Assembly: GCA_963791045.1 (NCBI GenBank)
Contig: CAWBQK010000001.1
Location: 32,001 to 96,000 of the forward strand
Origin: Candidatus Latescibacterota bacterium
Lineage (GTDB): Bacteria; Krumholzibacteriota; Krumholzibacteriia; WVZY01
Length of the DNA: 64,000 nucleotides
Direction of reading: 5' to 3'
In this document: piece by piece, positions 24,741 to 47,662 of the stretch
Numbering within the stretch: position 1 is the first letter of the stretch
Layout of the letters: each line of letters opens with the position of its first letter
Made by a program: the position numbers and the translations under genes
The notes under the pieces: model-generated
The model's input: the letters and a program-made list of their open reading frames with translations, nothing else
The model's database searches: none
Told to the model about the DNA's origin: nothing

Positions 24741-25905
24741 ATTCAGCGGGGGCGGACAACGTGAAACGGTAAGTCGGTTTCAAACTGTCGGCCGCACTGC
24801 TCGTATAAAATTCCATTCTTCGCATCGCAGTCCCCTCGTTCGTGAACTGGAGCACAAACCCCGCGTCGTCCCGGCCCTGCGACAACATCAACTGAAGCGC
24901 ATTTCGAATCGAAAACTTGAGTTTCTCAAAATCCGCGGGGACCACAACCGCCGTCACCAAAGTGCCCGACAGGATCCCGGGATCGGCAAAATCAACCGAC
25001 TCGGGAATATAGAGCGTGAGGGAAAAGTCCGTTCCCACTCGCGAATCGGGAACGATAAAGATTTCCAGAGTCGCTTCATGGACAAATGTTTCCGGGTCCA
25101 CGATCGACAGGTCCACCGGGATGAACACACGCTGCGCGGTCCCATCCGACAAGAGCAAATTGGTCGTGGTTCCGTGATCCTGCACGAATGTCCCGTCGGC
25201 GAGCATCTGGTACGTGGATTGTTTTCCATTTGTGAACACGACCTGGAGAAGCGGTTTGTTCTGGAGCGGGTCGTCGGACGGACTCGGATAAAGCCGCGAG
25301 CCGTATTCGATCATCCTCTCGACCGTGGGATCGTTGAGAACGACCGCGAATCCATTATTGGGCCTGTCTCCGCGAATCCATTCCTGAACAACCTGAGGGT
25401 CGAGGTTGTAGGACCTCGGAATGTTCGTCATGATTCGATCGGTGTTGACCTGCGTGTCATCGGGTATCGGGTCCCCCAACGGCAGATCGAATAGCGTGTC
25501 GCTCTCCGAATACGGCTCTTCGAGTTCGTTGAACACAGCGCCGAACTCAGGCACGCCGGATGTATCGATCGCGCTGATCAGCGTGAGCAGAATCCACGCC
25601 TCGTCGACGACTAGAAGCGTATCTTCACCCGCCGTTGAAAAGTTCGGACGAACGATCATCCACGATTCAAAATCGTCCCGGCGTCCAAGCCACATCCGAT
25701 CGTTGTACGCCATAAGAGAGTTGACGGGGAACACCGCGTCCCCGGACACCACCGGGAATGTATCCTGGAACACTTCGCCGGGCTGGCTCTGGATGAGCCC
25801 ATCATCGACGAAGTCGGACCCCAAAGGGGTTTCCGGGTCCGACGTGCATCCCGCGGCAAGCGCGAGAATCAGGTAAAGGGCCGCGACGGCGGCGAGTCTA
25901 TTCAT
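24730..25905 (-). CDS. Lipoprotein (DUF4270-like)
   Basis: Lipobox LAAG-C followed by TSDPETPLGSDFV; acidic beta-rich body. Confidence 0.65.
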   Translation of the reverse strand: MNRLAAVAALYLILALAAGCTSDPETPLGSDFVDDGLIQSQPGEVFQDTFPVVSGDAVFPVNSLMAYNDRMWLGRRDDFESWMIVRPNFSTAGEDTLLVVDEAWILLTLISAIDTSGVPEFGAVFNELEEPYSESDTLFDLPLGDPIPDDTQVNTDRIMTNIPRSYNLDPQVVQEWIRGDRPNNGFAVVLNDPTVERMIEYGSRLYPSPSDDPLQNKPLLQVVFTNGKQSTYQMLADGTFVQDHGTTTNLLLSDGTAQRVFIPVDLSIVDPETFVHEATLEIFIVPDSRVGTDFSLTLYIPESVDFADPGILSGTLVTAVVVPADFEKLKFSIRNALQLMLSQGRDDAGFVLQFTNEGTAMRRMEFYTSSAADSLKPTYRFTLSAPAEFGK

Positions 25906-25976
25906 ACTGATTTCCTTGATCGTAATTGCAAATTACTATCACAAAATATCTTATAACGTCAAGGCGATTAGCCCGA

Positions 25977-26378
25977 CTATTGGACGGGTTTGGTCGACAC
26001 CACCAGTCGCTTCGCACCAGCCCCTTTGACGATATCCATCACCTCGACCACCGTGCCGTGCGACACGCGCGAGTCCGCCTTGAGGACAATGGATTTCTCT
26101 TCGCTCTCGTCGAGCTTTCCCTTTAGCAGCGCGGGGAGAAGAGACATATCAACGGGTTCGTCATTGAGGTACACCGCTCCGTTAGGATCGATATACACGA
26201 CGATTGGATTCTGGCGCACCACATCCGAGTGCGCGGCTTTGGGCAGTTCGAGCTTTATGGCAGGGGTCGCAAGAAAAGAGGTCGATATCATAAAGAATAT
26301 CAACAACAGGAACAAAACATCGATAAGCGATGTAACGTTCAATATGACGGATCGTTTTTTTTGCGGTCTAAGTTGCAT
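25977..26378 (-). CDS. exbD: Biopolymer transporter ExbD/TolR
   Basis: LNVTSLIDVLFLLLIFFMI, LKAD..HGTVVEVMD. Confidence 0.93.
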   Translation of the reverse strand: MQLRPQKKRSVILNVTSLIDVLFLLLIFFMISTSFLATPAIKLELPKAAHSDVVRQNPIVVYIDPNGAVYLNDEPVDMSLLPALLKGKLDESEEKSIVLKADSRVSHGTVVEVMDIVKGAGAKRLVVSTKPVQ

Positions 26379-27015
26379 CGGAAAAATCTCTCACATTCGT
26401 CGACGACTGCTGATCCATCGCGGCGAGATTCTTTAACAAAATATGGGCGTACGTTTCTATCTTTATAACGAAGTTGTCCACGCGCGAATCAAAAAAGTTG
26501 TAAGCGATCAGCGCGGGAATACCAACAGACAGCCCAAACGCCGTCGTAATGAGCGCCTGGGCGATACCGCCCGACAGGAGCCCCGCCTGGCCGACGCCGG
26601 AGATGCTGATGACAGAGAATACATTGATCATACCAAACACGGTTCCCAGCAGCCCAAGAAGCGGGCTGGCCGCGGCGACCGTTTCGAGAACTACCAGATA
26701 TCGGGAAAGGCGTTTGACCTCACGACGCCCCGTGTCTTCCATCGCCTGGCGAATAACGGCCAGCGGCGAGGCGGATTCTTCGAGCCCCGCGCGAACCACG
26801 TTGGCAAACGGCGTGTTGTAGCGCTCGCAAATCTTGATCGCCATCGGTATATCCGCGGCGGAACGAACCGATTCGATACAGTTGATGATTTCGCGCTGCA
26901 AAACCCTCTGTGTCGTTAGACTCAAGATCTTCTCGATCACGACACCAAGACCCAACACTGACAACAAAGTCAGCGGGATCATCACCGGTCCCCCCTTAAC
27001 GAGGATCGCCCACAT
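26368..27015 (-). CDS. exbB: MotA/TolQ/ExbB proton channel
   Basis: SPLLGLLGTVFGMI...GGIAQALITTAFGLSVGIPA. Confidence 0.93.
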   Translation of the reverse strand: MWAILVKGGPVMIPLTLLSVLGLGVVIEKILSLTTQRVLQREIINCIESVRSAADIPMAIKICERYNTPFANVVRAGLEESASPLAVIRQAMEDTGRREVKRLSRYLVVLETVAAASPLLGLLGTVFGMINVFSVISISGVGQAGLLSGGIAQALITTAFGLSVGIPALIAYNFFDSRVDNFVIKIETYAHILLKNLAAMDQQSSTNVRDFSDAT

Positions 27016-27020
27016 CTAGC

Positions 27021-27884
27021 CTACTCCTTTCCGAAAAACTCTCTTTCATCGCCCGGCAATAGATAATAAAAACCGAACGTAACATCCAGGTATTCCTCGG
27101 GGAAGTCATCGGGCAACGGCCGGAACGGAGCCGCGCCTTTTATCGCGTTGCTGCTCGAACGATGGAGAGAGTCGTGGCCCAGGGATTCAACGACGTCGAG
27201 GCCGACCATTTTCCCATCCGGATAAATCCTAAAGCTGATCTTCGTATAACCGTGAATCGCCCCCAGGGCCGTAAACGCCAGAGGAGGAATCCAATGGCGC
27301 TTGATTCTTCGTTTCAAGTCTAGCAAATACGGCGCAAAATCCCAAGCCGTGGTATTTATCGAAATTCCGCCGACGGACGCCCTCGCCGAATCCTCGTGCT
27401 TGAATTCCGGGTTTTGCTGGGGCAGGCTCGGCGCCCTGCTCGGAGACTGCTGATCGAGGAACTTGGAACGCTTGAACGCTTCCCCGAGGTCGGTCATCTC
27501 TTCCGGCAGGGGCGGGAGTTCGCTCTCTCCTCCGCCTTCCTCTCCCGGTTGCGGGGACGGTGTATCCGGAATCGGCACCACTCCCCCGCTTCTTGGAAGC
27601 GCCGAATCATCATTGCGATCATCGTTGTCGCTGGCCGCCGATGATACCGTCGACAGGTATTTGCTCGCCCTTTCTGTCGGAGTCGGCGTATTTGGCGGCG
27701 AGACCAGTTCAAACTCTATTGGTTCCACCACGATAGGCGGTTCCTCGAATTCCAGGAAATCCGACGGAAACATGTCCTTGATCCCCGGAATGAGCGCGAC
27801 GGCGTGTATCATAATCGACACCACCACGGCCCAAAAGATCGTCGGGTCTCTGTGATGCAACGCGGCCGGTGATAGTACGCTCAT
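27021..27884 (-). CDS. TonB/TolA-like energy transducer
   Basis: N-terminal TM with SxxxH, Pro-rich linker, C-terminal LKRRIKRHW...SSNAIKGAAPFRPLP. Confidence 0.85.
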   Translation of the reverse strand: MSVLSPAALHHRDPTIFWAVVVSIMIHAVALIPGIKDMFPSDFLEFEEPPIVVEPIEFELVSPPNTPTPTERASKYLSTVSSAASDNDDRNDDSALPRSGGVVPIPDTPSPQPGEEGGGESELPPLPEEMTDLGEAFKRSKFLDQQSPSRAPSLPQQNPEFKHEDSARASVGGISINTTAWDFAPYLLDLKRRIKRHWIPPLAFTALGAIHGYTKISFRIYPDGKMVGLDVVESLGHDSLHRSSSNAIKGAAPFRPLPDDFPEEYLDVTFGFYYLLPGDEREFFGKE

Positions 27885-27893
27885 ACGGCAACC

Positions 27894-28727
27894 CTACCCG
27901 TCGACACGTTCCAGTCGGCACACCACGGTACCGGTAAACAGCTCACGGAGCAGCGGAACACGTGTCGTGAAATCAAGAACCCGGAATTTCGCCGGTTTGA
28001 GTTCCTCGAACGACATTCTGAATTCGGGGACCTCTTTGACGATTCTTCTATAACGGCGAATACTCATGTGATTGAGATCGTTGTCATACGAAAACATGAT
28101 CGCGTCGAGTTTTTTCTCAATCGCATCATCGGTCATGTCGCCGTTCCGTGATTTCAATATCTCACGAATCGCCCGCTTCAGCGATTCGCGGCTGAAAAGC
28201 AGATGACACCACGGGGTGTACACGTAATCGTAAAGATGCGACCCGAGCGGCGAGAAATGTGGGGTAAAAAAGAACCAGACAGCGCCACCGGGTTTTGTAA
28301 CACGGGCCATTTCTCTGACGGCACCCTCGGGATTCGCGAAGTGCTCCATCGCGTCGTTGGCCACGACGGTGTCGAACATTCCTGAAGGAACCGGGAGCGC
28401 GGATGCGTCACCGGCAAAAAATCCCCAGCGAAAAGACCTCCCTTCGCGTGACGCGAATTCTTCGCTGGCCAGCATATGATCGAGCGATATGTCCGTGCCA
28501 TAAACCTCCGCCGCACCCGCCTCGCCATACGCCACGGTCTTGCCTCCAAGCCCGCACCCGATGTCTAATATTCTTTTACCGCCGACGTCCGCTCTTGGTT
28601 CCAGATACTCCCGGATGAGCTCGCGCCCCCAGTGATATTCCCACTCCGAATACGCCTCGGCGGACTCACGTCCGCCCACACCCGGCCTCCGGAACACCTT
28701 GTTTAATAATATAATTAGCTTGTTCAC
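27894..28727 (-). CDS. Class I SAM-dependent methyltransferase
   Basis: ILDIGCGLG, GDASALP..FDTVVANDAMEH, RVTKPGG. Confidence 0.9.
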   Translation of the reverse strand: MNKLIILLNKVFRRPGVGGRESAEAYSEWEYHWGRELIREYLEPRADVGGKRILDIGCGLGGKTVAYGEAGAAEVYGTDISLDHMLASEEFASREGRSFRWGFFAGDASALPVPSGMFDTVVANDAMEHFANPEGAVREMARVTKPGGAVWFFFTPHFSPLGSHLYDYVYTPWCHLLFSRESLKRAIREILKSRNGDMTDDAIEKKLDAIMFSYDNDLNHMSIRRYRRIVKEVPEFRMSFEELKPAKFRVLDFTTRVPLLRELFTGTVVCRLERVDG

Positions 28728-28900
28728 GCAGATTGAGAAAGCAAAAATCCCCCGCTTGACGCAATCTCCACGTTCAAACCAAAGGACTTGCGAAAAATCA
28801 GAAACTTGTTAAAATAATAGAGATTCGTCTGCCAAAGTTATCAGAACCAGACCGGATAACCAATTAAAAATAATACGATTTAGCCCTGGAGTCATCCAAA

Positions 28901-29149
28901 ATGCCAACATACGAGTACGAATGCACTAAGTGCGGAATCTCATTTGAGTTACAGCAAAAAATGACCGACAAACCCCGTGAGCGCTGCCCCAAATGCCGCG
29001 GGAAAGTCATCCGCTTGATCTCGGGCGGCGGAGGCGTCATCCTCAAGGGGAATGGTTTTTATGCAACTGATTATCGTAGTGACGCCTACAAAAAAGCCGC
29101 CAAATCGGATAAGGCCGCGGGCGCTGAGAAGAAAACCGCAAACTCGTAG
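28901..29149 (+). CDS. FmdB family zinc-ribbon protein
   Basis: MPTYEYECTKCG...CPKCRG...LKGNGFYATDY. Confidence 0.92.
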   Translation: MPTYEYECTKCGISFELQQKMTDKPRERCPKCRGKVIRLISGGGGVILKGNGFYATDYRSDAYKKAAKSDKAAGAEKKTANS

Positions 29150-29180
29150 CGATCACCGACGGCAAGATACGCGGTGGAAC

Positions 29181-29672
29181 TTAGTCGTGTGGTTGTGAGA
29201 GGAGCTTTCTCAACCCGTTGACAAGGGCGTCACGTTCGGCGTTGTCGAGCACGCCCACAACGCGGTTGGCTTCTTCGACCCGCACCTTGATTCCCTTGTT
29301 GACAATATCCAAACCTGCAGGCGTCAATTCGATCAGGATTGCGCGGCGGTCTTCCGGATCGGGTCGTCGCTCAACCAAACCCGACATCTCCAGCCTGTCA
29401 AGCCTGTTAGTCATTGCCCCGGACGACAGGACCACCGACCGGCTGATTTCACTCGGATTCATCCGGTAAGGATGCCCCTGTCGGCGAAGCGCGGCGAGCA
29501 CTTCGAATGCCCACAAATCCACACCCAATCGACCAAGCTCTTTTCTCGCCTTACTTCTTAACATTTTTGATAACAATAGGATACGACCGATAATCTCGAG
29601 GCCGGCTGTATCCAGGTCGGGCCGTTGGGCCTGCCACTGCGCATGAATCTCGTCAAATGGATCTGTTCCCAT
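29181..29672 (-). CDS. MarR family regulator, PecS/HucR/TamR-like subgroup
   Basis: N-terminal AQWQAQRPDLD helix, FEVLAALRRQG, SGAMTNRLDRLE, DPEDRRA wing. Confidence 0.9.
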   Translation of the reverse strand: MGTDPFDEIHAQWQAQRPDLDTAGLEIIGRILLLSKMLRSKARKELGRLGVDLWAFEVLAALRRQGHPYRMNPSEISRSVVLSSGAMTNRLDRLEMSGLVERRPDPEDRRAILIELTPAGLDIVNKGIKVRVEEANRVVGVLDNAERDALVNGLRKLLSQPHD

Positions 29673-29691
29673 GCCTTCATAATATCAAACG

Positions 29692-29710
29692 ATACCTTGA
29701 TGTCAAGTAT
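29692..29710. promoter_or_regulatory. Putative MarR operator palindrome
   Basis: ATAC-CTTGA-TG-TCAAG-TAT in the AT-rich divergent intergenic region, ~20 nt upstream of the marR start. Confidence 0.6.
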
Positions 29711-29813
29711 TCTCACATAGATATTATGATTGACATGTTTCTTTATGTAATACATCTTTATATAAAACTTTATTCAGTCTCCCGTTGGCCCGGATTTTTG
29801 ACCAGGATGAACC

Positions 29814-30938
29814 ATGAAAAAGAAAGAATCTGAAAATACGAATCCAATACGCGAGAGTCAGGATTCCCCCCGCGTCAACATCGCCCTCGACGGCGCCACG
29901 CCTCGAGAGGAATGGCACATTGGCGATTTGGCATTCGCCACCGATATCGCCAGGGACCTGACGCTTCCGGTCGAGGAGCGAATCGAGGCGTTTGATGACA
30001 TATTCGACTCCGAAGTCGGAGATACCAACCTTGTGCGAGCAAGAAACATTGAACGAGAAACAGGATTTCGACAGCTCTATCTGAAGTTTGAGGGCGGCAA
30101 TCCCACAGGAACCCAGAAAGACCGGATTGCCTTTGCCCAGGCAGGCGACGCAGTCCGCCGCGGTTTTGACGCCGTCACGGTGGCAACTTGCGGCAACTAC
30201 GGCGTCGCAGTCGCGCTGGCGACCTCGCTCATCGGCCTGCGCTGCGTTGTCTATGTGCCCTGCAACTATCATTCGCGCCGTCTAAAAGAAATGGAGTCGT
30301 TCGGAGCAAGCATCATCCGCGAGGGCGACACTTATGAAGCCGCCGTCATCGCTTCCCGAGGATATGCGGAAAAGGAAGAAATTTATGACGCGAACCCGGG
30401 CGGCGCAAACACCACCACCCAGCTTCGCGCTTACGGTCAGATCGCGCACGAAATATACGATGATCTCCGGGACGCGCCGGCAATCGTGGGGATCCCGGTG
30501 TCCAACGGGACGACGCTCGCTGGAATCCACAAAGGGTTCGTCAGTCTGTACCGTCGAGGCAAGACATCACGAATTCCACGCATAGTTGCCGGCTCGTCGA
30601 CACGCAAGAATCCGATCGTCCATGCCTGGATCAAAAACCTTCCGGAATGCGAAGACCTCTCGCCGGTCGAAATCCGGGAAACGGATATTAACGAACCGCT
30701 CATCAACTGGCACTCGATCGATGGCGATCTGGCGCTGGATTCAATACGAAAGTCGAACGGATGGGCGGTCAACGCATCGGACAAAAAAATGCTGACGTAT
30801 TCGAAGTTTATCAGGGAACGGGAAGGACTGAGCGTTTTGCCGGCTTCGACGGCGGCGCTTATTGCGTTGATTGAAGGTCACGCCAAAGAAGCCCTGCCGA
30901 ACGACCGCTACGTCGTCCTTTTGACGGGAAAAAGATGA
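29814..30938 (+). CDS. PLP-dependent threonine synthase-like enzyme (fold type II)
   Basis: LKFEGGNPTGTQKDR PLP lysine motif, ATCGNYG, PVSNGTTLAG phosphate loop. Confidence 0.88.
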   Translation: MKKKESENTNPIRESQDSPRVNIALDGATPREEWHIGDLAFATDIARDLTLPVEERIEAFDDIFDSEVGDTNLVRARNIERETGFRQLYLKFEGGNPTGTQKDRIAFAQAGDAVRRGFDAVTVATCGNYGVAVALATSLIGLRCVVYVPCNYHSRRLKEMESFGASIIREGDTYEAAVIASRGYAEKEEIYDANPGGANTTTQLRAYGQIAHEIYDDLRDAPAIVGIPVSNGTTLAGIHKGFVSLYRRGKTSRIPRIVAGSSTRKNPIVHAWIKNLPECEDLSPVEIRETDINEPLINWHSIDGDLALDSIRKSNGWAVNASDKKMLTYSKFIREREGLSVLPASTAALIALIEGHAKEALPNDRYVVLLTGKR

Positions 30939-32038
30939 TGAACAAACAGCTCGAAGCAATCGTGTACTGTGAAGGCGCTTTCAACACGCCCAACGGCAAG
31001 ACTGCGCACGGACTGGTGCGCTTCACCAAACGCTACCGTGTGACGGCGGTTATCGACAGCCATTATGCCGGCCAGGACGCTGGCACGGTGCTCGACGACA
31101 AACCCAATGGAATCCCGATCGCCGGCTCGATCGATGATGCGCTCGAGAACCCCAACTCCAAAAAGGCTCCGCCCACTCACATGGTAATCGGGCTTGCGCC
31201 CGACGGAGGACGATTGGGGTACGCCGCGCGCAAAGACGTCACACATGCCCTCGCACGCGGTCTGAATATTGACTCGGGACTCCACGATTTCCTCTCCGAT
31301 GACCCTGCGATCGCCGCGGTGGCGAAGGAACATGGATCAACCATTCGAGATATCCGCAAGTCCCCACCGCAATCACAACTGCATTTCTTCTCCGGCCGAA
31401 TCGAAGAGGTCAAAGCGCTCAAGGTTGCCGTTCTTGGAACCGATTCCGCCATCGGCAAGCGAACAACCGCGTGGAAAGTCGTAGAAAGTCTCATTGAAGC
31501 GGGTTGTCGCACCGAGATGATCGGCACGGGCCAAACCGCCTGGCTCCAGGGAGCGCGACATTCGATCATGCTGGACACGCTCATAAACGATTTCCTGACC
31601 GGCGAGATCGAGCACGCGGTTGTGAGTGCATGGAATGACGCCCACCCCGATGTAATCGTCATCGAAGGTCAGGGAGGCCTTTTGAACCCCGCGTATCCCG
31701 GCGGATACGAGATCATCGCCGCCGCACGCCCCGATGTAATCCTGCTCCAGCATGCGCCGGCACGAAAGGAATACGACGGCTTCCCCGACTATCCGATCCA
31801 ACCGATTTCGAGACAAATTCAGGCCGTGGAAATCATATCCGGAAAACCCGTTGTCGCGCTGACCATCAATCACGAGGGGATTACGCCTGAAACAATCCCT
31901 CTCGTTTGCGAAACAATCTCGCAGGCGACCGGCCTGCCCGCCGTTGACGTGCTCATCGACGGCGCCACGGCTGTTGCGCAGATTTTGGCCAAGCATGTGG
32001 CCGACAAACACAAATCAAACACGAAAGAAGAGGTATGA
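30935..32038 (+). CDS. DUF1611 family protein (DgcN-like N-acetyltransferase)
   Basis: GKTAHGLVR, GLHDFL, VLGTDSAIGKRTT, GTGQT, IEGQGGL; overlaps the upstream stop. Confidence 0.9.
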   Translation: MMNKQLEAIVYCEGAFNTPNGKTAHGLVRFTKRYRVTAVIDSHYAGQDAGTVLDDKPNGIPIAGSIDDALENPNSKKAPPTHMVIGLAPDGGRLGYAARKDVTHALARGLNIDSGLHDFLSDDPAIAAVAKEHGSTIRDIRKSPPQSQLHFFSGRIEEVKALKVAVLGTDSAIGKRTTAWKVVESLIEAGCRTEMIGTGQTAWLQGARHSIMLDTLINDFLTGEIEHAVVSAWNDAHPDVIVIEGQGGLLNPAYPGGYEIIAAARPDVILLQHAPARKEYDGFPDYPIQPISRQIQAVEIISGKPVVALTINHEGITPETIPLVCETISQATGLPAVDVLIDGATAVAQILAKHVADKHKSNTKEEV

Positions 32039-34421
32039 AAAAAGATTCCGCTCCTGACAAAGACACGCGCGGGGATGTAAAACACAAGAACGACATGGTG
32101 ACGGATTCGGTGGCTTCCCTTAACGCGTTCGATGAACTTCGAGTTGGACCCGCGCGATTGGAAGCACGGCGACTTTCCGCCGCCTACACCGTCGTTCAGG
32201 GAGACAAACAAGACACGATCGACCTCGTTTACAGTTATGAAGAAAACGTTTTCGAACCAGAAAATCCCGTAGACCAGAATCTTGCCGACATGATCGCTGC
32301 ACAGCTTGCTCTGAACTACGGTTTGTTTTGCACGCGGATTGTATTCGAAGGCACGTTCGATCCCGTCGATCGCCGCTTTCTCCGCGACATGGCGGAAAAC
32401 ACGGCAAGAGAGATCTACGTAAACAAGTTTCTTGAGCCGAACCCTTTTCTCTTCGGACCGGCATCGCAGTTGACCCCCACTAAACTCAACCGGTTTTGTC
32501 TGGCGGATCTCGTTTTCGCCAGCGAAAAACACAAACCCACAATCGGCTGGAGTCCCAAGAGAGCGCCCATAGCCGTGTCGCAATCTTGTCGAGCGGAGGA
32601 AAAGACAGTTTGTTGAGTTACGGCCTATTGAATGAACTCGGATACGAAGTTCATCCCATTTTCGGCAATGAGTCGGGCCGTCACTGGTTTACCGCGCTGA
32701 ACGCACACCGTCATTTTGAAGCCCACGTCCCGAACACTTCCAAGGTCTGGATGAATACGGATCGTATCTTCTCCTGGATGCTCCGCCACATTCCTTTCGT
32801 CCGAAAAGATTTCGAAAACGTCCGCTCGGACGAATATCCGATCCGGTTATGGACGGTGGCGTTATTCCTTTTTGGCTCGCTCCCAATGGTCCGTAAAAGA
32901 AACGCCGGCCGTATCGTCATCGGCGACGAGTTCGACACCACGGTTCGAACGTCCAAGCACGCCATCACGCACTACAATGGGCTCTTCGATCAAAGCAGAT
33001 TCTTCGACAACTATTTGAGCCGCTTCTTTTCCCGCAAACGATGGCGTTTGAGCCAGTTTTCACTCGTTCGACAACTCTCGGAACTCTTGATCGAACGCGT
33101 GCTGATCGCCCGCTATCCCGAGCTCTTCGCGCACCAGGTGTCGTGCCACGCGGCGCACATCGTCGAGTCACGTGTCCACCCCTGCGGAAAATGTGAGAAG
33201 TGCCGCCGTATCGTCGGGATGGTGGTGGCGAACGGAGGGAACCCTGGGGTCTGCGGGTACAACGAGGATCAGATCAGGAGTTGCCTGGAGTCGATCGTCA
33301 AGAAAGGCGTGCACCAGGAACGCCCGGCGGCCGAACATATGATCTGGGCACTCGCTAAACGCAGAAAAATCAATCTCCAACCGGGGCAAAAGGCAAACCC
33401 ACGCCCCGAGGTGATGAAGCTAAGATTCGACCCTATCCGATCTCCGCTCGACGGGATTCCGCAGGATATTCGTGTTCCGCTCTTCCGCGTTCTTCTTGAA
33501 CATGCGGACGGCGCCGTTCGCCGATCGGGCCGGATTTGGGTCGACTTCGACCCGCTGACCGACCCGTCGCTTCATCGCCCTTACCTGTTCGAGAGATCGC
33601 GCCCAAACCGGAACCCGTCCAGTCCGCAATCGTCCCATTCGGAAACCTACATGCTTGGCGAAATGAACTGGCCCGAGGCCCAGCGGAGACTCGCCGAGGT
33701 GGATGTTGCCTTGCTTCCCGTCGGAGCCATAGAGCAGCACGGCCCTCACCTCCCGCTGGACACCGATGCTTTCGACGCGGATTATCTCGCAAAACTCGTG
33801 GCATCTCATTGCTCGGATCCAAAACCAGTCGTGCTGCCGCTCATACCTTACGGCGTGTCCTATCATCACAACGACTTCAGCGGCACAATAAGCATCCGCA
33901 ACGAGACACTGGCGAGCATGGTGTATGAAATAGGGATGGGCGCGTCACGAAACGGCATCACAAAGCTCGTCATCATCAACGGGCACGGCGGCAATGATCC
34001 ATCGCTTCATTTTGCGGCGCAGAAAATCAATCGCGACGCCCACATTTTCGTGTGCGTCGACAGCGGAGAAACAAGCGACGTGGATATCTACGCCATGATT
34101 GACACGCCCAACGACGTCCACGCGGGCGAAATCGAAACGAGCACCAGCCTCGCAACGCGCCCGGAGTTGGTGAAGATGGATAAATTGAAGCCGTTTGTCC
34201 CGGAGTTCTCGAGCCGCTATCTCGATTTTACTTCGAAACGGGGCATCACCTGGTATGCGTTTACGAACAAGATTTCGGCATCCGGCGTGATGGGTGATCC
34301 CACCAAAGCCACCGCCGAAAAAGGCAAGAAGATGTGGGACGTGATGACGCGCAATCTGGTCGAGTTTGTGGAGGAACTCAAACAATTGACGCTCGACGAG
34401 ATCTATCAAAAACGTTACTAA
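32035..34421 (+). CDS. Fusion of a PP-loop ATPase (MurL/QueC-like) and a creatininase-family amidohydrolase; frameshift near 32550
   Basis: SSGGKDS PP-loop, SCH...PCGKCEKC metal motif; C-terminal PVGAIEQHGPHLPLDTD, NGHGGN, HAGEIETS, GVMGDPTKATAEKG; ORFs 32035-32616 and 32496-34421 overlap out of frame. Confidence 0.85.
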
Positions 34422-34439
34422 ACGCATGGGACAATCAAA

Positions 34440-35504
34440 TTGAAAATCACCCGAATCGAAGCCTGGCCGGTGGAAATGCGGCTAAATGAGCCGTACACGA
34501 TCGCGTATGAGACCGTTGAAACAGCTGTCAATGTTTTCATTCGAATTGAAACGGATCGCGGAATAACCGGATACGGATGTTCCGCACCCGATCTCCAGAT
34601 CACCGGCGAGGATCCGGACGGCGTAATCGAAGCGGTGACCGTAATCGCGGAACCGATTCTCAAGGGTTCCGATCCCCTGCGGCTGGCGCGTCTTATCGAG
34701 AAACTGAAGGACCAGGTCAAGAACCAGCCGGCCGCCGTGGCCGGAATCGACATGGCGCTTCATGACATCCTCGGGAAATATTGCGGTCTTCCTCTGTGGA
34801 AGCTTCTCGGCGGATTCAGAACGTGTTTCAAAACCAGCATCACGATTGGAATCCTGCCCATCGAGGAAACACTCGACAGCGCCCGTCAGTGGTTGAGCCA
34901 AGGGTTTACAGCTCTAAAAATCAAGGGCGGGGCAAACGTCGATGAGGACATCGAGCGGCTGCGCCGGCTCAGAAAATCGGTGGGCCCACGGATTGAGATC
35001 CGCTTCGACGCCAACCAGGGGTATACCGTCGAAGAAACACTCCGGTTTGTGGAGGCCATGCGCGAAGTCAAACTCGAACTCATCGAACAACCGACCTCCA
35101 AAAACGAGCCTGATCTTCTCGGAGCCGTAACAAAAAACGTGTCTCTCCCCGTGATGGCCGACGAAAGCCTCGTAAACCTTCGCGACGCGTTCCGGCTCGC
35201 GAAGAAAGACCTCGTGGACATGGTCAACATCAAGCTGATGAAAGTTGGCGGTATCTATGAGGCCCTTCTCGTCAACGGGGTCGCTAGATCGGCGGGGCTC
35301 GAAGCGATGGTCGGTTGTATGGACGAGGCCGCTCTCAGCATCGCCGCGGGACTCCACTTTGCGCTCGCCCGCCCGAATGTCGCCTACTGTGATCTCGACG
35401 GACATCTCGCCCTCGAGGGCGACCCTTCCGACGGTGCGGTGATCATCCGGAACGGTTACCTGTATCCGACCAACAAACCGGGCCTGGGATTCGACCTTGC
35501 ATGA
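34440..35504 (+). CDS. Dipeptide epimerase (L-Ala-D/L-Glu epimerase / DgcA-like, enolase superfamily)
   Basis: LKIK, FDANQGY, IEQP, MADES, NIKLMKVGG, MVGCMDE, DLDG. Confidence 0.92.
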   Translation: MKITRIEAWPVEMRLNEPYTIAYETVETAVNVFIRIETDRGITGYGCSAPDLQITGEDPDGVIEAVTVIAEPILKGSDPLRLARLIEKLKDQVKNQPAAVAGIDMALHDILGKYCGLPLWKLLGGFRTCFKTSITIGILPIEETLDSARQWLSQGFTALKIKGGANVDEDIERLRRLRKSVGPRIEIRFDANQGYTVEETLRFVEAMREVKLELIEQPTSKNEPDLLGAVTKNVSLPVMADESLVNLRDAFRLAKKDLVDMVNIKLMKVGGIYEALLVNGVARSAGLEAMVGCMDEAALSIAAGLHFALARPNVAYCDLDGHLALEGDPSDGAVIIRNGYLYPTNKPGLGFDLA

Positions 35505-35536
35505 CATTCCCTTCCCCGTGATTTTGAACGGCTGGA

Positions 35537-35577
35537 CAAGAAAAAGCATCCCTCCGCGCGAGGGATGCTTTTTCTTG
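35537..35577. terminator. Bidirectional intrinsic terminator
   Basis: Perfect 18-bp inverted repeat caagaaaaagcatccctc / gagggatgctttttcttg between convergent operons. Confidence 0.85.
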
Positions 35578-35616
35578 TACCTCTCTAATCCGCTACTCCG
35601 GCCAAAACGCCCGTTG

Positions 35617-36828
35617 TCAGGCGAGCGCTTTCGCGATCATTTCGACGAGCCAGCCAATCTGGTCTTCATCGATGATGAGCGGCGGAGCAAAACGAATCGT
35701 CGTCTCATGGGTCTCTTTGGCGAGAATACCCAGATCTTTTAGTTTCTCGGTATACTGCCTCGCCTTCCCCGCCTCGTCCGTGAGTTCGATGGCGTTGAGA
35801 AGACCCATCCCGCGGACCTCTTTGATCTTATCGGTGTCGATGGCGCGGAGTCCTTCGCGGAACTTCTCACCAAGAACCACGGCCCGCTCGTCGAGCTTTT
35901 CGTCGATAAGAACGTCCAGAGCCGCCATTCCAACCGCGCAGGCGACCGGGTTCCCGCCAAACGTGCTGCCGTGCTCACCGGGTCCAATGACCGACATGAC
36001 ATCCTTGGACGCAAGCGCAGCCGACACGGGGTAAACACCACCGCCGAGCGCCTTGCCAACCATCATGATGTCCGGTTTTACATTCTCGTGCATCCAGCAG
36101 AACATCTTGCCCGTCCGGCAAAATCCAGTCTGGACTTCATCGAGCATGAGAAGGACGTTGTGCTTCTCGCAAATTGCTTTGACCTTTGTCAGGTAACCTG
36201 GGCTCGGGACCTTTACGCCTGCCTCGCCCTGGATCGGTTCCACCAGGAACCCCACCGTGTTCTCGGTGATGGCCGCTTCCAACGCCTCGACGTCGTCGTA
36301 CGGAATCACCTTGAACCCCGGCGTCGCGGGACCGAACCCGTCGTGCGCGATGGGGTCGGTCGAAAACCCGACAATCGTCGTGGTCCGCCCGTGGAAGTTC
36401 TCCTCGCAGACAATGATCTCCGCCTTGTTGTCGGCGACACCCTTCTTTTGGTAGCCCCATTTTCTTGCGATTTTAATTGCCGTCTCAACAGCCTCGGCGC
36501 CGGTGTTCATCGGAAGCGCGATTTCCATTTGACAGACATCGGTGAGTTGTTTGAGATACGGTCCGAGCATGTCGTTGTGGAACGCCCGGCTCGTGAGCGT
36601 CAAACGATCCGCCTGGTCCTTGAGGGCCGCGATCAACTTAGGGTGCCTGTGACCCTGGTTCACCGCACTGTACGCCGACAGGCAATCCATGTACTTCCTG
36701 TCTTCGGGATCCCACACCCAGACACCATCGGCCTTGCTTATCACGACCGGGATCGGGTGATAGTTGTGTGCACCGTACGTGTTTTCGAGATCCATGTAGT
36801 ACTGAGAGCCTTTGGCGGCTGTTTTCAT
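35617..36828 (-). CDS. rocD: Ornithine--oxo-acid transaminase
   Basis: GAHNYHP, LSAYSAVNQGHRHP, LPMNTGAEAVETA, EPIQGEAG, DEVQTG, GKALGGG, GEHGSTFGGNP. Confidence 0.95.
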   Translation of the reverse strand: MKTAAKGSQYYMDLENTYGAHNYHPIPVVISKADGVWVWDPEDRKYMDCLSAYSAVNQGHRHPKLIAALKDQADRLTLTSRAFHNDMLGPYLKQLTDVCQMEIALPMNTGAEAVETAIKIARKWGYQKKGVADNKAEIIVCEENFHGRTTTIVGFSTDPIAHDGFGPATPGFKVIPYDDVEALEAAITENTVGFLVEPIQGEAGVKVPSPGYLTKVKAICEKHNVLLMLDEVQTGFCRTGKMFCWMHENVKPDIMMVGKALGGGVYPVSAALASKDVMSVIGPGEHGSTFGGNPVACAVGMAALDVLIDEKLDERAVVLGEKFREGLRAIDTDKIKEVRGMGLLNAIELTDEAGKARQYTEKLKDLGILAKETHETTIRFAPPLIIDEDQIGWLVEMIAKALA

Positions 36829-38150
36829 AGCTCCTCTTTCCTTTCCTTGAAGATCACATTGTACGGCTCGAGGGCATCAAGAATCGGATTGTAGATACCC
36901 GGGGACACCGGAACATGACAACCCTTGTCGGTGATCTTCCCATCGAGGATCATCTTGACGGCGATCGCCGCCGGAAGCGAAACGGTCCGCGCGATCGATG
37001 TGTCCTCGCCGGGAATCCCGTAATCGACGAGTGTTGACGTGAGGAACTCTTTCTTTCCGCCCGAGAACTCGGCGACAAATTCGTGATGCATGACAATCAT
37101 ATCCCGCTCATTCTCGCCAATCGACATCATGTCAAGGGTGAGAGCGTTCAGGTAATCGAGCGGATTATCCTTGTCCTTGGGCAAAGGCCGGTCGCTAAAG
37201 AGACCCAGCCAACCAAAACGCTTGATGACGGTCGCATAGGGTTCCACACCGAGGAATTTCGCCGTCGCCAGGGCAATGTCTTCGCCCGGTTTGGCGCCAA
37301 CGAGTTTGGCGGTCACATCACCATAGGTGCTCCCCGAGAAGCCGTCGACGGCATCTTCGCTCAACCATCCGAGGGCGACGATCTTGCGCATGGTCTCGCA
37401 CCAGCCGGTCATCCTGAAGGTGCCGCGGTATACGGTCTCCGAATGGTCCAGGCCGTAGATTTCTTTGTAAGGCACTGAATTCCGGTTTGGATAGTTTTCG
37501 AACGCTCCGACCTCCGGAACATTCTGAACATAGTAGTTTTCAAACAGCTGCTCGCCGGGAACGATGACTTCTTCGCCGTCCGCGAGCCAACGAGCCGAAT
37601 TCTTCGAAGCGAGAAGCACGCCGCGCGGCGACCACGAGAACTTGTACCCGAAGGGGTTCGTGTTCGCTTCGTGCGAGGGAAGCGCGCCGGTCGACGACCG
37701 GAAGCTAACAACTTTTCCGTTCCTGCCCTCGACGTCATGGATGATCCGCATCGCCGACATGTGATCGATTCCCGGATCGAGACCACACTCGTTGAGAAGC
37801 ATCACACCGGCTTCCTTCGCTTCGGCGTCGAGCGCCTTCATTTCGTCGCTGACATACGACGTCGTGACCATCTGTTTCTTGTGCTTGATACAGAACTTGG
37901 CCACCGTAACGTGGTACGCGTACGGAACGAGACTGACAACAACGTCGGAGTTCTTGATTTCGGCTTCCATGCCCGCGAGGTCCTCGACATCGAGTGTCTT
38001 GGCGATTCCACGCGGATGACCGTCGATCATTTTCTCAGCTTTGCTCACCGTTCGCGTCGCAACGACGAGTTCGATATCCGGCTGATCGAGCAAAAATCTC
38101 ACCAGCGGTCGCGTAACCAATCCGGCTCCAAACACCACTACCTTTGACAT
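36825..38150 (-). CDS. Saccharopine dehydrogenase (Glu-forming; Lys9/AASS SDH-like)
   Basis: GAGLV Rossmann motif, MVTTSYVS, NECGLDPGIDHMSA, NPFGYKFSWSPRGVL, YPNRNS. Confidence 0.92.
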   Translation of the reverse strand: MSKVVVFGAGLVTRPLVRFLLDQPDIELVVATRTVSKAEKMIDGHPRGIAKTLDVEDLAGMEAEIKNSDVVVSLVPYAYHVTVAKFCIKHKKQMVTTSYVSDEMKALDAEAKEAGVMLLNECGLDPGIDHMSAMRIIHDVEGRNGKVVSFRSSTGALPSHEANTNPFGYKFSWSPRGVLLASKNSARWLADGEEVIVPGEQLFENYYVQNVPEVGAFENYPNRNSVPYKEIYGLDHSETVYRGTFRMTGWCETMRKIVALGWLSEDAVDGFSGSTYGDVTAKLVGAKPGEDIALATAKFLGVEPYATVIKRFGWLGLFSDRPLPKDKDNPLDYLNALTLDMMSIGENERDMIVMHHEFVAEFSGGKKEFLTSTLVDYGIPGEDTSIARTVSLPAAIAVKMILDGKITDKGCHVPVSPGIYNPILDALEPYNVIFKERKEEL

Positions 38151-38183
38151 GCGATACCTCCCTTTACGTGTGCAATTGGAGCA

Positions 38184-39485
38184 TTAGTCCAAAAAGTTGC
38201 TAATATACTCGTAGTCCGGGGTCAGCTTTCCCCGGTGGAGAATTAAAGCTTTCTTTATCGGCGCCGGCAATTCGAGATCATCGAAGTCGACACCGAAATC
38301 CGCTTCGGCAATCGCCGGAATGAATTCCTTGAGAACATTACTGAAATACGCCGACGCGTCCCGCGGAAGTTCTGACGGGAGAATGTCCACCGCCATTATC
38401 ACGGGACCGTTGCCTTCGACGCCGTCCGTGACCGAGTCGGTGGCGGGATCCCACACAAAGCACGGATCGCCGGGCTCAGTCGCTTTGGCCGTCGCCTCGA
38501 TCGAGCCGTCGATGTCGCAGCTGATGTCGCCGATAACCTTGAGCCGCCCGTTGTTCCAGCGGTTCTTCAGGTAATCTTTTGTAACCAGCCGCGGGTACTT
38601 CTCATCCCAATAGATACAATTTACGAGAACGGACAGGTTGGGCAAATAGTTCTCGAAAATACCAACGTATTTCTCGGGATGATCATAGTAGTCCTGGAGC
38701 TCGAAAGAATCGCCTTCGTTTTTCGGAACGACCATGTCTTCTTCTTTGAACACGACTTTGAATATGGTGTTCCTCGCGCCCGGTGTGTCCGACGTAATGG
38801 ACGACAGATCGGCCGGCGACACCTCTTTTGTCGGAAGAACATCGAGCATTTCCTGCGCGCCCATCGCCACGTTTCCGTACCCGGCAAAACCGACCGTCAG
38901 TGGAAGCACCTCTTCGGGAAGCCCGCCGGACTCTATCCAATGGCCAATCACTTCGAGCGCTGTTTTGATTTCTCTTATCGAACCGTATTCGTGAGGCTGC
39001 TTGAGCGCCGTGAGAGGGTTCTTAAAACCGTCCTTCTTCAACCGCTGACCGAGCGCGACAAGTGACTCGATCATCCCTGCAACCCCAGCATGCCAACCAA
39101 AGAAAATCAACCGCCTGTTCTTGTCATCGACGACGCGTTCGTAATCGATGAGCTGACAGCCGAGCTCCATCATTCTCTTGAGCATCGCCATGTTGTAGGA
39201 TTGCCCTTTGATCGTATGCGAAAAGAAGACGTAAGTTCCGTTCTCGAAAAAGAACGTGGCCGGCATCTCCTTGACGGCAATCACAGTGGGACATTTCGAG
39301 AGGTCTTCCTCTATCGTCGCTCCCGCGGCAACATATTCATCTTCAACGATCACTCGAATGTCGGAGGGTTGGACGACGACATCGACGCCGCGCTCTTTCA
39401 ACTCCCGCACGTGTTCGGGAATAAGGGGCACACGCCGTTCCCAGATACTCTTGTCCTCACGCCTGATTCCGATGCAGTGCGACAT
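38184..39485 (-). CDS. Lysine-ketoglutarate reductase (AASS LKR-like)
   Basis: GIRREDKSIWERRVPLIP, FFSHTIKGQSYNM, LIDYE, NCIYW..YPRLVT, IGDISCDIDGSIE, MAVDILPSELP. Confidence 0.9.
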   Translation of the reverse strand: MSHCIGIRREDKSIWERRVPLIPEHVRELKERGVDVVVQPSDIRVIVEDEYVAAGATIEEDLSKCPTVIAVKEMPATFFFENGTYVFFSHTIKGQSYNMAMLKRMMELGCQLIDYERVVDDKNRRLIFFGWHAGVAGMIESLVALGQRLKKDGFKNPLTALKQPHEYGSIREIKTALEVIGHWIESGGLPEEVLPLTVGFAGYGNVAMGAQEMLDVLPTKEVSPADLSSITSDTPGARNTIFKVVFKEEDMVVPKNEGDSFELQDYYDHPEKYVGIFENYLPNLSVLVNCIYWDEKYPRLVTKDYLKNRWNNGRLKVIGDISCDIDGSIEATAKATEPGDPCFVWDPATDSVTDGVEGNGPVIMAVDILPSELPRDASAYFSNVLKEFIPAIAEADFGVDFDDLELPAPIKKALILHRGKLTPDYEYISNFLD

Positions 39486-39675
39486 CGCTCACGCCTCCAA
39501 ACGAACGTGTTAAAATTATAATTACGGTGGGGGAAAGGGTCGTAGACCGCATAAAGACGGACACTCCTCAAGAGTGCCCGCTCACCGTCTGGTCCCATAC
39601 AGGCTAGCCGAGGTAGCCCCCGAATGTCAAGCGTGATCGGTTGTCAGGGGCGGGTTTACCGCGGATCGTTCGCGC

Positions 39676-41214
39676 TCATTCCGGGGCGGCCGTATCGGAC
39701 GCGGGCTCCTCACCGGCGCCCGAATCGAAAACGATTTCTCCATCCAGTACCGTCTTGCGAACACCGATGGCGTCGAGGTCCTCGCCCAGCGGGTTCCCCG
39801 AAAGCACGACGAAATCAGCAAGACGCCCCGGCTCGAGTATTCCGGCATTCCTCTCGTGCGCGGCGAGCGCGTGGGGCCGAGATGTGTAACACCCGATGGC
39901 GAGCTGTGGCGTCAGCCGTTCCTCTTCGACCGGATGCTCGATTGCGCCTTTCATCCCGAAAAGCGGTCCGGCAGGCATCCCGTCGGAGCCAAACACGCAC
40001 GGGATCCCCGCGTCGATCATCGACCGGTACGGATTGCACCAGCGATTGCGGTCCTTACCCAACCGCCTCTCGTTGAGGCCGGCCGGGCCGCCCCAGTTGC
40101 GGATAAAATTGGGTTGGAGAGACACGAATACCGGCGCGGATTTGAGGCTTTCAATCTGGGCCGTGCCGGCAACTTCGCAGTGTTCCATACGGAAAAGATG
40201 GCTGTCGGCCGGAAAAGTCTTGAAGACAGCTGCCGCCTGGTCGATCGCGCGGTCGCCGATCGCGTGAATGGCGAGCACATATCCGTTCTCCGAGCATTCC
40301 TCGCCCAGAGCACGGATGACTTCCTTGCGCATGAGAAGCGTGCCCCAACCGCTACCGTCCGCATAGTCGGCGTTTAGCGCGGCGGTACGCCCGCCTAGCG
40401 ATCCGTCGAGAAAGCTCTTCAACCCCGCGAGCCTCAGGTCTTTCGCCCCGGATTCCTCGCATGTCCGACGGTAATATTCGAGATGACGGGGTGTCGAATG
40501 GAGCAGGACATCGATCCTGAGCGGAACGGACGACGAAGCGACGCCCTTTGTGTAGATCTCGAAATTTTCCGGTTCCACGATGTCGTGAATCGTGGTGATA
40601 CCCAACTTGTGCAGATCCCGGATCGCCTCTTCAATGCTCGTAATGACACTTTCGGGTTCGGGCGTCCAAAGCCTTCCCGCTTCCCATAGCGCATGCTCGA
40701 CGACCGTTCCCGAATCCTCATCGATAAGATCGGGGCGTTTGGGCATACGACCGAGAAGAGTCGAATTCAGCACACCAACGTGTCCGCAAATCCGTCTCGC
40801 CAACACCGGTTTGTCCGCATTGACACCGTCGAGCATTACCCGTGTCGGGAGCCCCACCTCCTGCCAGCGGCTCTCATCGAAGTCGACACCCATAATAAAT
40901 GATGCGTCGGGATTTTCCGCCGCCCAGCCGGCAAGCAGTTCGCACACACCACGCGCCGACGTGGCGCTCGACAAATCGCAACGAAGCTTGTTGAGCGCAA
41001 CCGCCGTCAGATGGATGTGTGTATCGACAAAACCCGGCAGGACAAAGCCGAGGTCGAGATCTACACGTTCGACATCGTCTCCGAGATCATCGGGCATCGC
41101 CGCCCCGGGGCCGACAATCGCCTGGATCTCGTTGTCCGAAACAACCAGCGACGCCCTTTCGAAATCTCCGACCTCCGTATACACCCAGCCGTTTTCAAAA
41201 ATCTTTTTATTCAT
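39676..41214 (-). CDS. Amidohydrolase-3 (YtcJ-like) metal-dependent hydrolase
   Basis: LPGFVDTHIH, KSFLDGSLGGRTA, HAIGDRA, RMEHC, FGSD, GRLADFVVL; start approximate. Confidence 0.9.
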   Translation of the reverse strand: MNKKIFENGWVYTEVGDFERASLVVSDNEIQAIVGPGAAMPDDLGDDVERVDLDLGFVLPGFVDTHIHLTAVALNKLRCDLSSATSARGVCELLAGWAAENPDASFIMGVDFDESRWQEVGLPTRVMLDGVNADKPVLARRICGHVGVLNSTLLGRMPKRPDLIDEDSGTVVEHALWEAGRLWTPEPESVITSIEEAIRDLHKLGITTIHDIVEPENFEIYTKGVASSSVPLRIDVLLHSTPRHLEYYRRTCEESGAKDLRLAGLKSFLDGSLGGRTAALNADYADGSGWGTLLMRKEVIRALGEECSENGYVLAIHAIGDRAIDQAAAVFKTFPADSHLFRMEHCEVAGTAQIESLKSAPVFVSLQPNFIRNWGGPAGLNERRLGKDRNRWCNPYRSMIDAGIPCVFGSDGMPAGPLFGMKGAIEHPVEEERLTPQLAIGCYTSRPHALAAHERNAGILEPGRLADFVVLSGNPLGEDLDAIGVRKTVLDGEIVFDSGAGEEPASDTAAPE

Positions 41215-41360
41215 GGCAATATTCCAGCAGTCTAGTTTTTTTTGGGCCATAAAAGTTCGAGGCTCCTGATCAAGGAGCCTCGTTCCCATTCCCGGTAAAT
41301 GCTGTTCCGGTTGGCTTGACTCGAGCACTCCACCGTCGATGCTCTCACAAGCCGATACTT

Positions 41361-41717
41361 CTAATCAATATGATTTGCTTCCGGTGGAAAACGGCGGGTT
41401 TTCAGCAAATTCCCTTCTTTATCAAACCAGTATTCGACACCCACACTGTAGTACTTCCAACGCTCGGTCTGTCGGCCGGCGGAATTGTAACGGAGACGGT
41501 GCGGGGTATACCCCAAAGTGTCGAAAATAACTAATTTATCGTTCTTCAGATTTTTACGTAACGACATTCGTCGCACGTACTTACGTCCCCTCTTGCCACG
41601 CTGGTGCTTCATGCCGTCCGGATAGGTTCTGGGCTCGCGATCGAGCCGCCCACCCGCGAAGACAGAGGTGCTAAGAAGGAAGATAAGTCCTAATCCGAGC
41701 AGAAATGCTCGTTTCAT
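41361..41717 (-). CDS. Small basic secreted hypothetical protein
   Basis: AAGGAG RBS; signal peptide MKRAFLLGLGLIFLLSTSVFA. Confidence 0.65.
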   Translation of the reverse strand: MKRAFLLGLGLIFLLSTSVFAGGRLDREPRTYPDGMKHQRGKRGRKYVRRMSLRKNLKNDKLVIFDTLGYTPHRLRYNSAGRQTERWKYYSVGVEYWFDKEGNLLKTRRFPPEANHID

Positions 41718-41892
41718 GGCCTTTGCTCCTTGATGCTTGCCTGTAGATGAGGCCAATTGAGTTTGATGCCTAATTGTACCACAGAATCGCCCGCAAAAGC
41801 AAGCATAAGAAGAGGTTTAGAAACGCGTAACACCGCAAGGATATGCGGAGTTCTTGGGTTCATCATCCAGTTAACGCAAGGTCATTCCCGCA

Positions 41893-41932
41893 AAGAAAAC
41901 GGCCGCCGGACGTACTCGATGTCCGGCGACCG
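41893..41932 (-). terminator. Intrinsic terminator
   Basis: cggccgccggac...gtccggcgaccg stem followed by a U-tract on the minus strand. Confidence 0.6.
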
Positions 41933-41961
41933 CTGAAGGCTTGATCCGCCCAAAATACCGC

Positions 41962-47647: not shown

Positions 47648-47662
47648 CCCATCAAGGAAATC

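Follow-up and report, generated by a model that had tools for sequence, protein, structure and literature searches.

A conserved four-gene cassette with a MurL-like ATPase-creatininase fusion in a Candidatus Latescibacterota genome

The stretch of DNA analysed here (the window) comprises 64,000 nucleotides (nt) of a Candidatus Latescibacterota bacterium (GenBank assembly GCA_963791045.1, contig CAWBQK010000001.1, positions 32,001 to 96,000 of the forward strand). Four genes, designated A, B, C, and D, lie on its + strand at 29814-35504 and encode a threonine synthase (ThrC)-like pyridoxal phosphate (PLP) enzyme, a DUF1611 protein, a three-part fusion protein, and an enolase-superfamily epimerase, respectively. 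The features of the locus are collected in Table 1. A preliminary description of this DNA had reported four tightly packed genes, the first three overlapping, and both the coordinates and the overlaps were confirmed: A/B and B/C overlap by 4 nt each (ATGA), and 18 nt separate C from D. The strong terminator proposed behind gene D also held up, as the hairpin reached -34 kcal/mol (z -7.57) and none of 200 shuffled sequences was as stable. An Rfam match to mir-1179 at 35532-35582 was rejected as a chance match to the long perfect stem of this terminator (28.6 bits, where the gathering score is 80). Upstream of gene A, sigma-70-like hexamers occur on both strands of the intergenic region, together with a perfect 10-nt inverted repeat (29677-29686 / 29720-29729); the promoter and operator of the operon probably lie there, judging from these motifs. 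No riboswitch or leader RNA was found upstream of gene A with Rfam at E <= 0.1. A-B-C-D is a real operon and looks co-transcribed.

Table 1. Coordinates of the cassette genes, their domains, and the bordering elements within the window (aa, amino acids)
Feature	Position	Strand	Remarks
Gene A, ThrC-like fold-type II PLP enzyme	29814-30938	+	374 aa; PALP, NF004996
Gene B, DUF1611 protein	30935-32038	+	367 aa; PF17396 (DUF1611_N) and PF07755 (DUF1611)
Gene C, three-part fusion	32035-34421	+	SGGKDS PP-loop, CGKCEKC, C-terminal Creatininase
Gene C, N-terminal domain	32035-32559	+	about 155-175 aa; frame 1, up to the frame break
Gene C, frame break	32559..32560	+	one base fewer than in homologues
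Gene C, MurL-like/QueC-fold PP-loop ATPase domain with helical subdomain	32568-33650	+	frame 0; SGGKDS, FSLVRQLSEL, C-x12-CGKCEKC
Gene C, creatininase-family metal amidohydrolase domain	33660-34421	+	PF02633; invariant predicted metal ligands
Gene D, enolase-superfamily dipeptide epimerase	34440-35504	+	354 aa, TTG start; MR_MLE_N and MR_MLE_C
Divergent intergenic region between the MarR gene and gene A	29673-29813		141 nt, AT-rich; promoter-like hexamers, inverted repeat
Bidirectional intrinsic terminator between gene D and the convergent ornithine aminotransferase gene	35534-35581		21-bp stem, flanked by an A-run and a T-run

The distribution of the cassette was determined by a scan of species-representative genomes, one per species, in which at least 576 of at least 587 pattern-matching stretches encoded a relative of gene C. 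The best 80 of these relatives were analysed as loci, and the presence of the other genes was scored by tblastn with the proteins of the window. Gene A was detected in 68, gene B in 72, and gene D in 66 of the 80 loci, and all four genes stood in the same order and on the same strand in 56. Therefore, the arrangement is far beyond chance. The four genes had been treated as one unit in the preliminary description, with the proviso that they might not co-occur elsewhere; wide co-occurrence as a conserved block was found. Partners that were absent were mostly missing at contig ends, and only seven of the 80 loci lacked a partner despite room on the contig. Among these, L006 is without A, L021 is without A or B, L023 has C alone, and L036, L054, L068, and L082 hold A-C only. 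The creatininase occurs as a separate piece in L054 and L083. When all 990 open reading frames (ORFs) flanking the 80 loci were clustered, no fifth conserved gene was found; the next most frequent neighbour was a sigma-54 activator (13/80), and Pfam assignments of the 119 nearest flank ORFs were heterogeneous.

The cassette is carried by hundreds of bacterial species in more than 10 phyla. Carriers among the best 80 loci belong to Latescibacterota, Gemmatimonadota, Acidobacteriota/Holophagae, Aminicenantes, Ignavibacteria, Calditrichia, Zixiibacteriota, and KSB1, as well as to Krumholzibacteriales, Eisenbacteria, Planctomycetota, Rhodothermales, Woeseiaceae, and Desulfobacterales. Most are uncultured sediment bacteria, but two are cultured, namely, Desulfosarcina alkanivorans PL12 and D. 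variabilis, so the function can be tested. The cassette proteins are 55-70% identical across the carrier phyla. In a tree of 65 C proteins, the submitters' phylum labels changed 22 times, against a minimum of 13 and a shuffled mean of 37.5, which indicates a family inherited vertically in some parts and mixed between phyla in others. The gene is patchy among the relatives of this genome, occurring in 8 of 31 genomes (this one among them), in 4 of the 16 of high quality, and in 6 of 13 within the family, this one counted. A self-contained, horizontally mobile cassette is the best reading of these data. Moreover, a profile search of 1.84 billion representative sequences recovered 626 members of the C family at E <= 0.001 and 156 at E <= 1e-30, among them forms of about 470-520 aa without the hydrolase. 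Several odd arrangements were not used as evidence because each was a single cluster, namely, a DUF1611::C fusion (P0125, 855 aa), a C::methyltransferase fusion (P0124), and chimeric fragments (P0191, P0269). Given the ATGA overlap of B and C, the fusion clusters are likely indel artefacts. A 1026-aa B-C ORF in L057 was likewise set aside, as it is without the P-loop half of B and appears to reflect a deletion or an artefact of the assembly.

Gene C had been described as a fusion of a PP-loop ATPase with a creatininase. The fusion is real in homologues and both domains are present; in this record, however, the gene is split over two frames by a missing base, which had been overlooked. The homologue P0002 is intact and 795 aa long; frame 1 (32035-32616, 193 aa) corresponds to its residues 1-177 with 60% identity, and frame 0 (32496-34421) to its residues 161-795 with 80% identity. 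The switch point lies directly after base 32559, where WSPK is followed by ESAHSRVAILSSGGKDS, and this base is both the last of a Lys codon in frame 1 and the first of a Glu codon in frame 0. As the nearest syntenic relative reads WSPTESREERIAILSSGGKDS in a single frame at the junction, the window has one base fewer. Homologues of gene C measure 747-839 aa in 117 of the 120 best database matches, 65 of 76 homologous ORFs in the other loci are uninterrupted at 740-860 aa, and the copies in six same-order relatives are intact at 802-851 aa. In the same assembly, rpoB and rpoC each fall into 7-9 pieces that hop among three frames (contig C5, about 40900-48800), which shows that the assembly carries many indel errors; its completeness estimate of 81% despite just 21 contigs fits this. 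Since rpoB and rpoC are likewise broken and the copies of relatives are intact, the frame break is most likely an assembly or sequence error rather than biology, and any frameshift in this genome is to be treated with suspicion. Programmed frameshifting was rejected, as T CCC AAG A contains no X XXY YYZ slippery heptamer and the homologues are single ORFs. In a search of public sequencing runs, none held more than 0.17 of the sampled words, and four runs gave no cover at 32515-32594.

In the case of the ATPase part of gene C, domain libraries gave little. No Pfam or NCBIfam model passes over the first approximately 530 residues, and with a Pfam release that does not contain PF26299 (MurL_N) and PF26298 (MurL_epimerase_C), no family passes on MurL sequences or on C residues 1-523. 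NCBIfam gave a weak MurL match (NF041275, 22 bits against a cut-off of 700). Profile comparison was more informative. When the ATPase was aligned by hhalign with four MurL genes from gammaproteobacterial genomes, the probability was 97.2% (E 3.7e-11) over 193 columns, whereas a set of five QueC sequences gave 38% over 35 columns, confined to the PP-loop. The GGKDS loop, an FS-LRPLSEL motif, and a Cys cluster (C...CGxCxKC) are common to C and MurL. Moreover, an ESM Atlas feature search placed an unfused C homologue beside MurL clusters (MurL_N, MurL_epimerase_C) with a score of 0.96 and 27 of 30 matches. By sequence profile, the PP-loop part can thus be assigned as a MurL-like ATP-dependent epimerase module, a more precise label than the generic ATPase first given, and it appears closer to the epimerase MurL than to the amide-forming QueC.

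The predicted structure places this module in the QueC fold. Residues 1-523 of an intact homologue were modelled with AlphaFold from a 35-sequence alignment, giving a predicted local distance difference test score (pLDDT) of 87.7 and a predicted template modelling score of 0.88. Foldseek ranked QatC, QueC, and Cap9 at the top (E 3e-5 to 2e-3), and an exhaustive aligner gave QueC (3bl5_A, Z 12.9, root mean square deviation 3.0 over 190 residues) and Cap9 (9nto_B, Z 12.6), whereas no other PP-loop enzyme exceeded Z 8.8. Like these enzymes, C has a four-Cys zinc-site pattern, with C363, C376, C379, and C382 (L007 numbering) invariant in 35 C sequences. The Pfam and TIGR QueC models are not passed; the Pfam model stays under its gathering score (best E 6.7e-4), with 22 of the 35 members matching at E <= 1, and, unlike QueC, Cap9, and QatC, C has no deazaguanine or defence context. 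MurL and, as predicted here, C belong to pathways in which a short acyl-amino acid has its C-terminal residue inverted. C differs from MurL in being fused to a creatininase-family hydrolase and set among genes for a DUF1611 protein, a PLP enzyme, and an enolase-type epimerase, and no MurD2 or Mur ligase is found among the conserved neighbours. The glutamate racemase MurI is also kept by this genome and by four of five complete cassette carriers, so C does not serve a peptidoglycan D-Glu route.

The C-terminal domain of gene C passes PF02633 by a wide margin (240.5 bits against 31.3) and matches solved creatininases at E 3e-20. The motifs E-x-H...D, NGHGGN, and HAGExE are invariant in 14 C homologues, as are E567, H569, D578, H651, H696, and E699 (P0002 numbering), which we take to be the metal ligands of the creatininase family. 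The family includes creatinine amidohydrolase, MftE, ArfB, and IolN, but the domain remains under every equivalog cut-off: the peptidase MftE is nearest (TIGR03964, 156.2/172), followed by creatininase (TIGR04448, 105.4/235) and IolN (80/245). None of the characterised family members is known to be covalently tethered to an ATPase. For the N-terminal domain of C, modelled with a pLDDT of 89.7 (AF2), structure searches returned a weak RNase-H-like topology only (VIA Z <= 5.4, Foldseek E >= 3.5e-3), and no fold was assigned.

Gene D aligns end to end with solved dipeptide epimerases, best with 3rit from Methylococcus capsulatus (249 bits), 3jva from Enterococcus faecalis (247 bits), and YkfB (1jpm, 234 bits), and it scores 231 bits against a cut-off of 500 with NF041118 and 92 against 343 with NF011708. 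K160 and K162 (KxK), D190, E216, D241, K265, and K268 (NIKLMK) are present in 52 of 52 orthologues, and D318-L-D320 (DxD) is present in 51, the remaining one having a gap. Presumably, KxK, the second Lys, and the three metal ligands are the catalytic residues of dipeptide epimerases, and DxD binds the ammonium group of the dipeptide; in keeping all of them, gene D resembles YkfB/YcjG, 3rit, and 3jva. It departs from YkfB at positions that may read the substrate side chain (E24 for R24, D51 for T51, and D295 for Ile). At residue 24, 47 of the 52 orthologues have Glu and 5 have Gln, and gene D has acidic residues at 51 and 295 in common with 3rit, not YkfB or 3jva. In YkfB, Arg24 of the 20s loop binds the carboxylate of the Glu side chain, and 3rit was reportedly solved with a cationic dipeptide ligand. 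Because gene D is acidic at 24, 51, and 295, it probably prefers a basic over an acidic residue. Its genomic partners also differ from those of the ykfABCD muropeptide operon.

Gene B combines a Rossmann-like N domain (PF17396, 89.9 bits) with a P-loop C domain (PF07755, 199.3 bits), and its solved relatives are 2g0t, 7xrj, and 2obn. By sequence, it is distantly related to DgcN, an N-acetyltransferase of D-Glu. In the case of gene A, PALP (177 bits) and NF004996, named PRK06381 threonine synthase (414.5 bits against 266), were matched, but TIGR00260 was not passed (74 against 167), and the best solved relatives are ThrC enzymes at only 73-89 bits. The PLP lysine K102 (NPTGTQKDR), the counterpart of K61 in 1uim, is conserved in all 63 orthologues. 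T88, S155, and R160 of Thermus thermophilus ThrC, which we take to hold the substrate phosphate, align to Y129, P195, and Q203 of gene A; Q203 is found in 61 of the 63 orthologues, while Arg is found in the T. thermophilus enzyme and in the genome's own ThrC. The latter is encoded on another contig (C11, L001:1453-2640, - strand) and passes NF006050 with 579 bits against 303, and no member of NF004996 above cut-off was found in 14 control genomes. With a ThrC elsewhere and Gln for Arg in nearly all orthologues, gene A can be set apart from the housekeeping ThrC on sequence grounds, an identity that the preliminary description had kept in view. The replaced phosphate positions suggest a distinct subfamily that probably does not act on a phosphoester in the ThrC manner.

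The best reading of the cassette, with its four genes and five catalytic domains, is that it handles a single small derivative of an amino acid within the cell. Tentatively favoured, at a probability of about 0.4, is a route that uses ATP for the stereo-inversion or remodelling of an N-acyl amino acid or dipeptide, in which the inverted residue is probably basic (Lys-, Orn-, or Arg-like) and not Glu, because wherever a part has a known relative, its chemistry concerns the alpha-carbon or amide in a short N-acylated amino acid. Under this reading, gene B would put an acyl or aminoacyl group on an amino acid, and the MurL-like domain of C would then adenylate the C-terminal alpha-carboxylate, yielding a labile alpha-proton and a one-way inversion; QueC and Cap9 are carboxylate-adenylating enzymes. 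Gene D, as a classical two-lysine enolase-type dipeptide epimerase, would interconvert the L,L and L,D forms, and the product would be released when the tethered creatininase-family domain cleaves an amide, be it that of the acyl or peptide bond or that of a cyclic intermediate. Gene A might make the amino-acid substrate or use up the product. What the analysis shows directly is the genes with their domains, homologies, conserved catalytic residues, and conserved linkage; the order of the steps, the substrate, and the direction are inferred.

Several points weigh against this scheme. The role given to gene A is a guess, and gene B might act as a ligase that uses ATP instead of as a transferase that uses acetyl-CoA. 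The MurL mechanism, with carboxylate adenylation and a labile alpha-proton, is itself a proposal, and two epimerase types, one MurL-like and one enolase-type, would have to work in one operon. The basic-substrate argument leans on the role of YkfB Arg24 and on the ligand of 3rit, and 3rit itself has Arg at position 24. A strict five-activity model is weakened by the four loci with A-C only and the one with C alone, and L038 and L050 show no creatininase match in C. In two of the four A-C-only genomes, which were checked, the sole DUF1611 protein is a 38-39% identical paralogue encoded elsewhere; carrier genomes, by comparison, hold the operon-type B (64% identity) plus a 33-38% paralogue.

A still more specific and rather improbable elaboration of ATP-driven inversion would make fusion C a new ATP-driven deracemase. 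The MurL-like half would adenylate an N-acyl or guanidino amino acid at its alpha-carboxylate, the substrate would close to a readily racemised five-membered ring resembling an azlactone or creatinine, and the tethered creatininase-fold half would open this ring stereoselectively. With the DUF1611 protein, the enolase-type epimerase, and the PLP enzyme, the cassette would make a D-basic amino acid or dipeptide as a cytoplasmic metabolite of cation or osmotic balance in sediment bacteria. The recurrent CorA/MgtE and DUF2179 membrane-protein neighbourhood would fit such a metabolite.

Among the alternatives, the one that survives best, although unlikely, is that the cassette builds a small cytoplasmic metabolite such as a D-residue dipeptide, an amino-acid amide, or a cyclic amidine, for example, a compatible solute or a cation-homeostasis compound. 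Gene A would perform a beta- or gamma-replacement, gene B would acylate, the ATPase of C would form an amide or ring, the hydrolase would trim, and gene D would set the stereocentre. When the flanks of the 80 loci were clustered, neither a transporter nor a peptidase or regulator proved to be conserved beside the cassette, in keeping with a biosynthetic module. Neighbours that recur in a minority of loci are membrane proteins for ions or solutes (DUF2179/YitT-type in 13/80 and CorA/MgtE in 13/80 loci), but these counts are small and not phylogenetically independent, and none of these genes lies in the window. The amide formation of QueC-fold relatives (QueC, Cap9, QatC) would agree with such a ring- or amide-forming step; the profile of the C ATPase, however, is nearer to MurL. 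Public runs with related sequence came from salt-marsh, estuary, and sediment metagenomes, in small shares only. The patchy distribution (6/13 family genomes) fits an accessory trait and is silent on the product.

The preliminary description had viewed the operon as an extension of the DgcN-DgcA module, serving catabolism or recycling of D-glutamate or muropeptide L-Ala-D-Glu by acetylation, epimerisation, and deacylation. The DgcN-DgcA catabolic route for D-glutamate is real (PMC10845958). Like that module, the operon joins a DUF1611 protein with an enolase-superfamily racemase or epimerase, gene B belonging to the DUF1611 family of DgcN and gene D to the enolase subgroup that includes DgcA and the L-Ala-D/L-Glu epimerases; moreover, MurL, the nearest relative of the C ATPase, acts on an L-Ala-L-Glu terminus. 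However, B and D remain far under the equivalog cut-offs (NF041892 DgcN, 144 against 480 bits; NF042940 DgcA, 156 against 400), and a separate pair in the same genome, a 397-aa DUF1611 protein and a 341-aa enolase-superfamily epimerase (contig C15, L092:5500-9872), is closer, with 234 and 226 bits. Unlike DgcN-DgcA, the cassette also has two further obligatory genes with three domains, and gene D has the dipeptide DxD motif together with Glu or Gln at residue 24 in 52/52 orthologues, where the presumed Glu-carboxylate binder of YkfB is Arg. In the flank ORFs of the 80 loci, no linked LD-carboxypeptidase, endopeptidase, or peptide transporter was found. Catabolism or recycling of D-Glu is thus poorly supported and improbable, and the module extension is likewise poorly supported. 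A role as an alternative D-Glu source replacing MurI was rejected, since a MurI above the model cut-off is encoded by this genome and by 4 of the 5 complete carriers. As a side observation, two CNNM/CorC-CBS (Mg2+/Co2+ transporter-like) genes immediately precede the pair on contig C15.

That gene A is a housekeeping threonine synthase beside unrelated genes, with C a decaying pseudogene, is by far the least probable reading and is contradicted by the co-occurrence data, as the threonine synthase label of NF004996, passed by gene A, and the interruption of gene C in this record are outweighed by the separate ThrC, the empty control genomes, the missing conserved Arg, the four genes standing together in 56/80 loci across many phyla, and the equally broken essential genes rpoB and rpoC.

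Literature searches found no description of the operon, in line with the earlier view that the pathway is undescribed. The cassette is only the second known context for an ATP-dependent epimerase module of the MurL type, which in this case is fused to an amidohydrolase. Working out its function would reveal a new way in which D-amino acids or dipeptides are metabolised in sediments and would give a function to a large part of the DUF1611 and 'PRK06381 threonine synthase' annotations, which are probably misnamed. Moreover, an epimerisation system that is driven by ATP, and hence unidirectional, could possibly be used in biocatalysis.

With regard to the surroundings of the cassette in other genomes, DUF2179-domain membrane proteins (YitT-type or DUF5698-type) adjoin it in 13 of the 80 loci, often less than 200 nt downstream on the same strand (L009, L024, L026, L035, L068, L082, L084, and others), and CorA or MgtE lies within 10 kb, likewise in 13 of the 80. 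This neighbourhood might point to a transporter or cation-homeostasis link, the counts not being phylogenetically independent. The YitT/DUF2179, CorA, MgtE, NIF3, and DHH neighbours of other loci are all absent from the window.

In the window itself, a MarR regulator gene (29181-29672, - strand) diverges from gene A and heads a - strand region (24730-29672) that also encodes a class I methyltransferase, TonB, ExbB, and ExbD. In the other loci, MarR homologues are confined to L006 and L009, both from Latescibacterota, where they stand some 3 kb upstream. A small Zn-ribbon gene (28901-29149, + strand) also stands upstream of the operon in locus L005. Downstream, a convergent - strand cluster (35617-41328) comprises genes for an ornithine--oxo-acid transaminase (TIGR01885, 568 bits against 378), a saccharopine-dehydrogenase-like protein, an AlaDH/PNT-type (lysine-ketoglutarate-reductase-like) protein, and an Amidohydro_3 protein. 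Its first three genes are syntenic beside the operon in L005 only, and the cluster may be a lysine/ornithine catabolic set.

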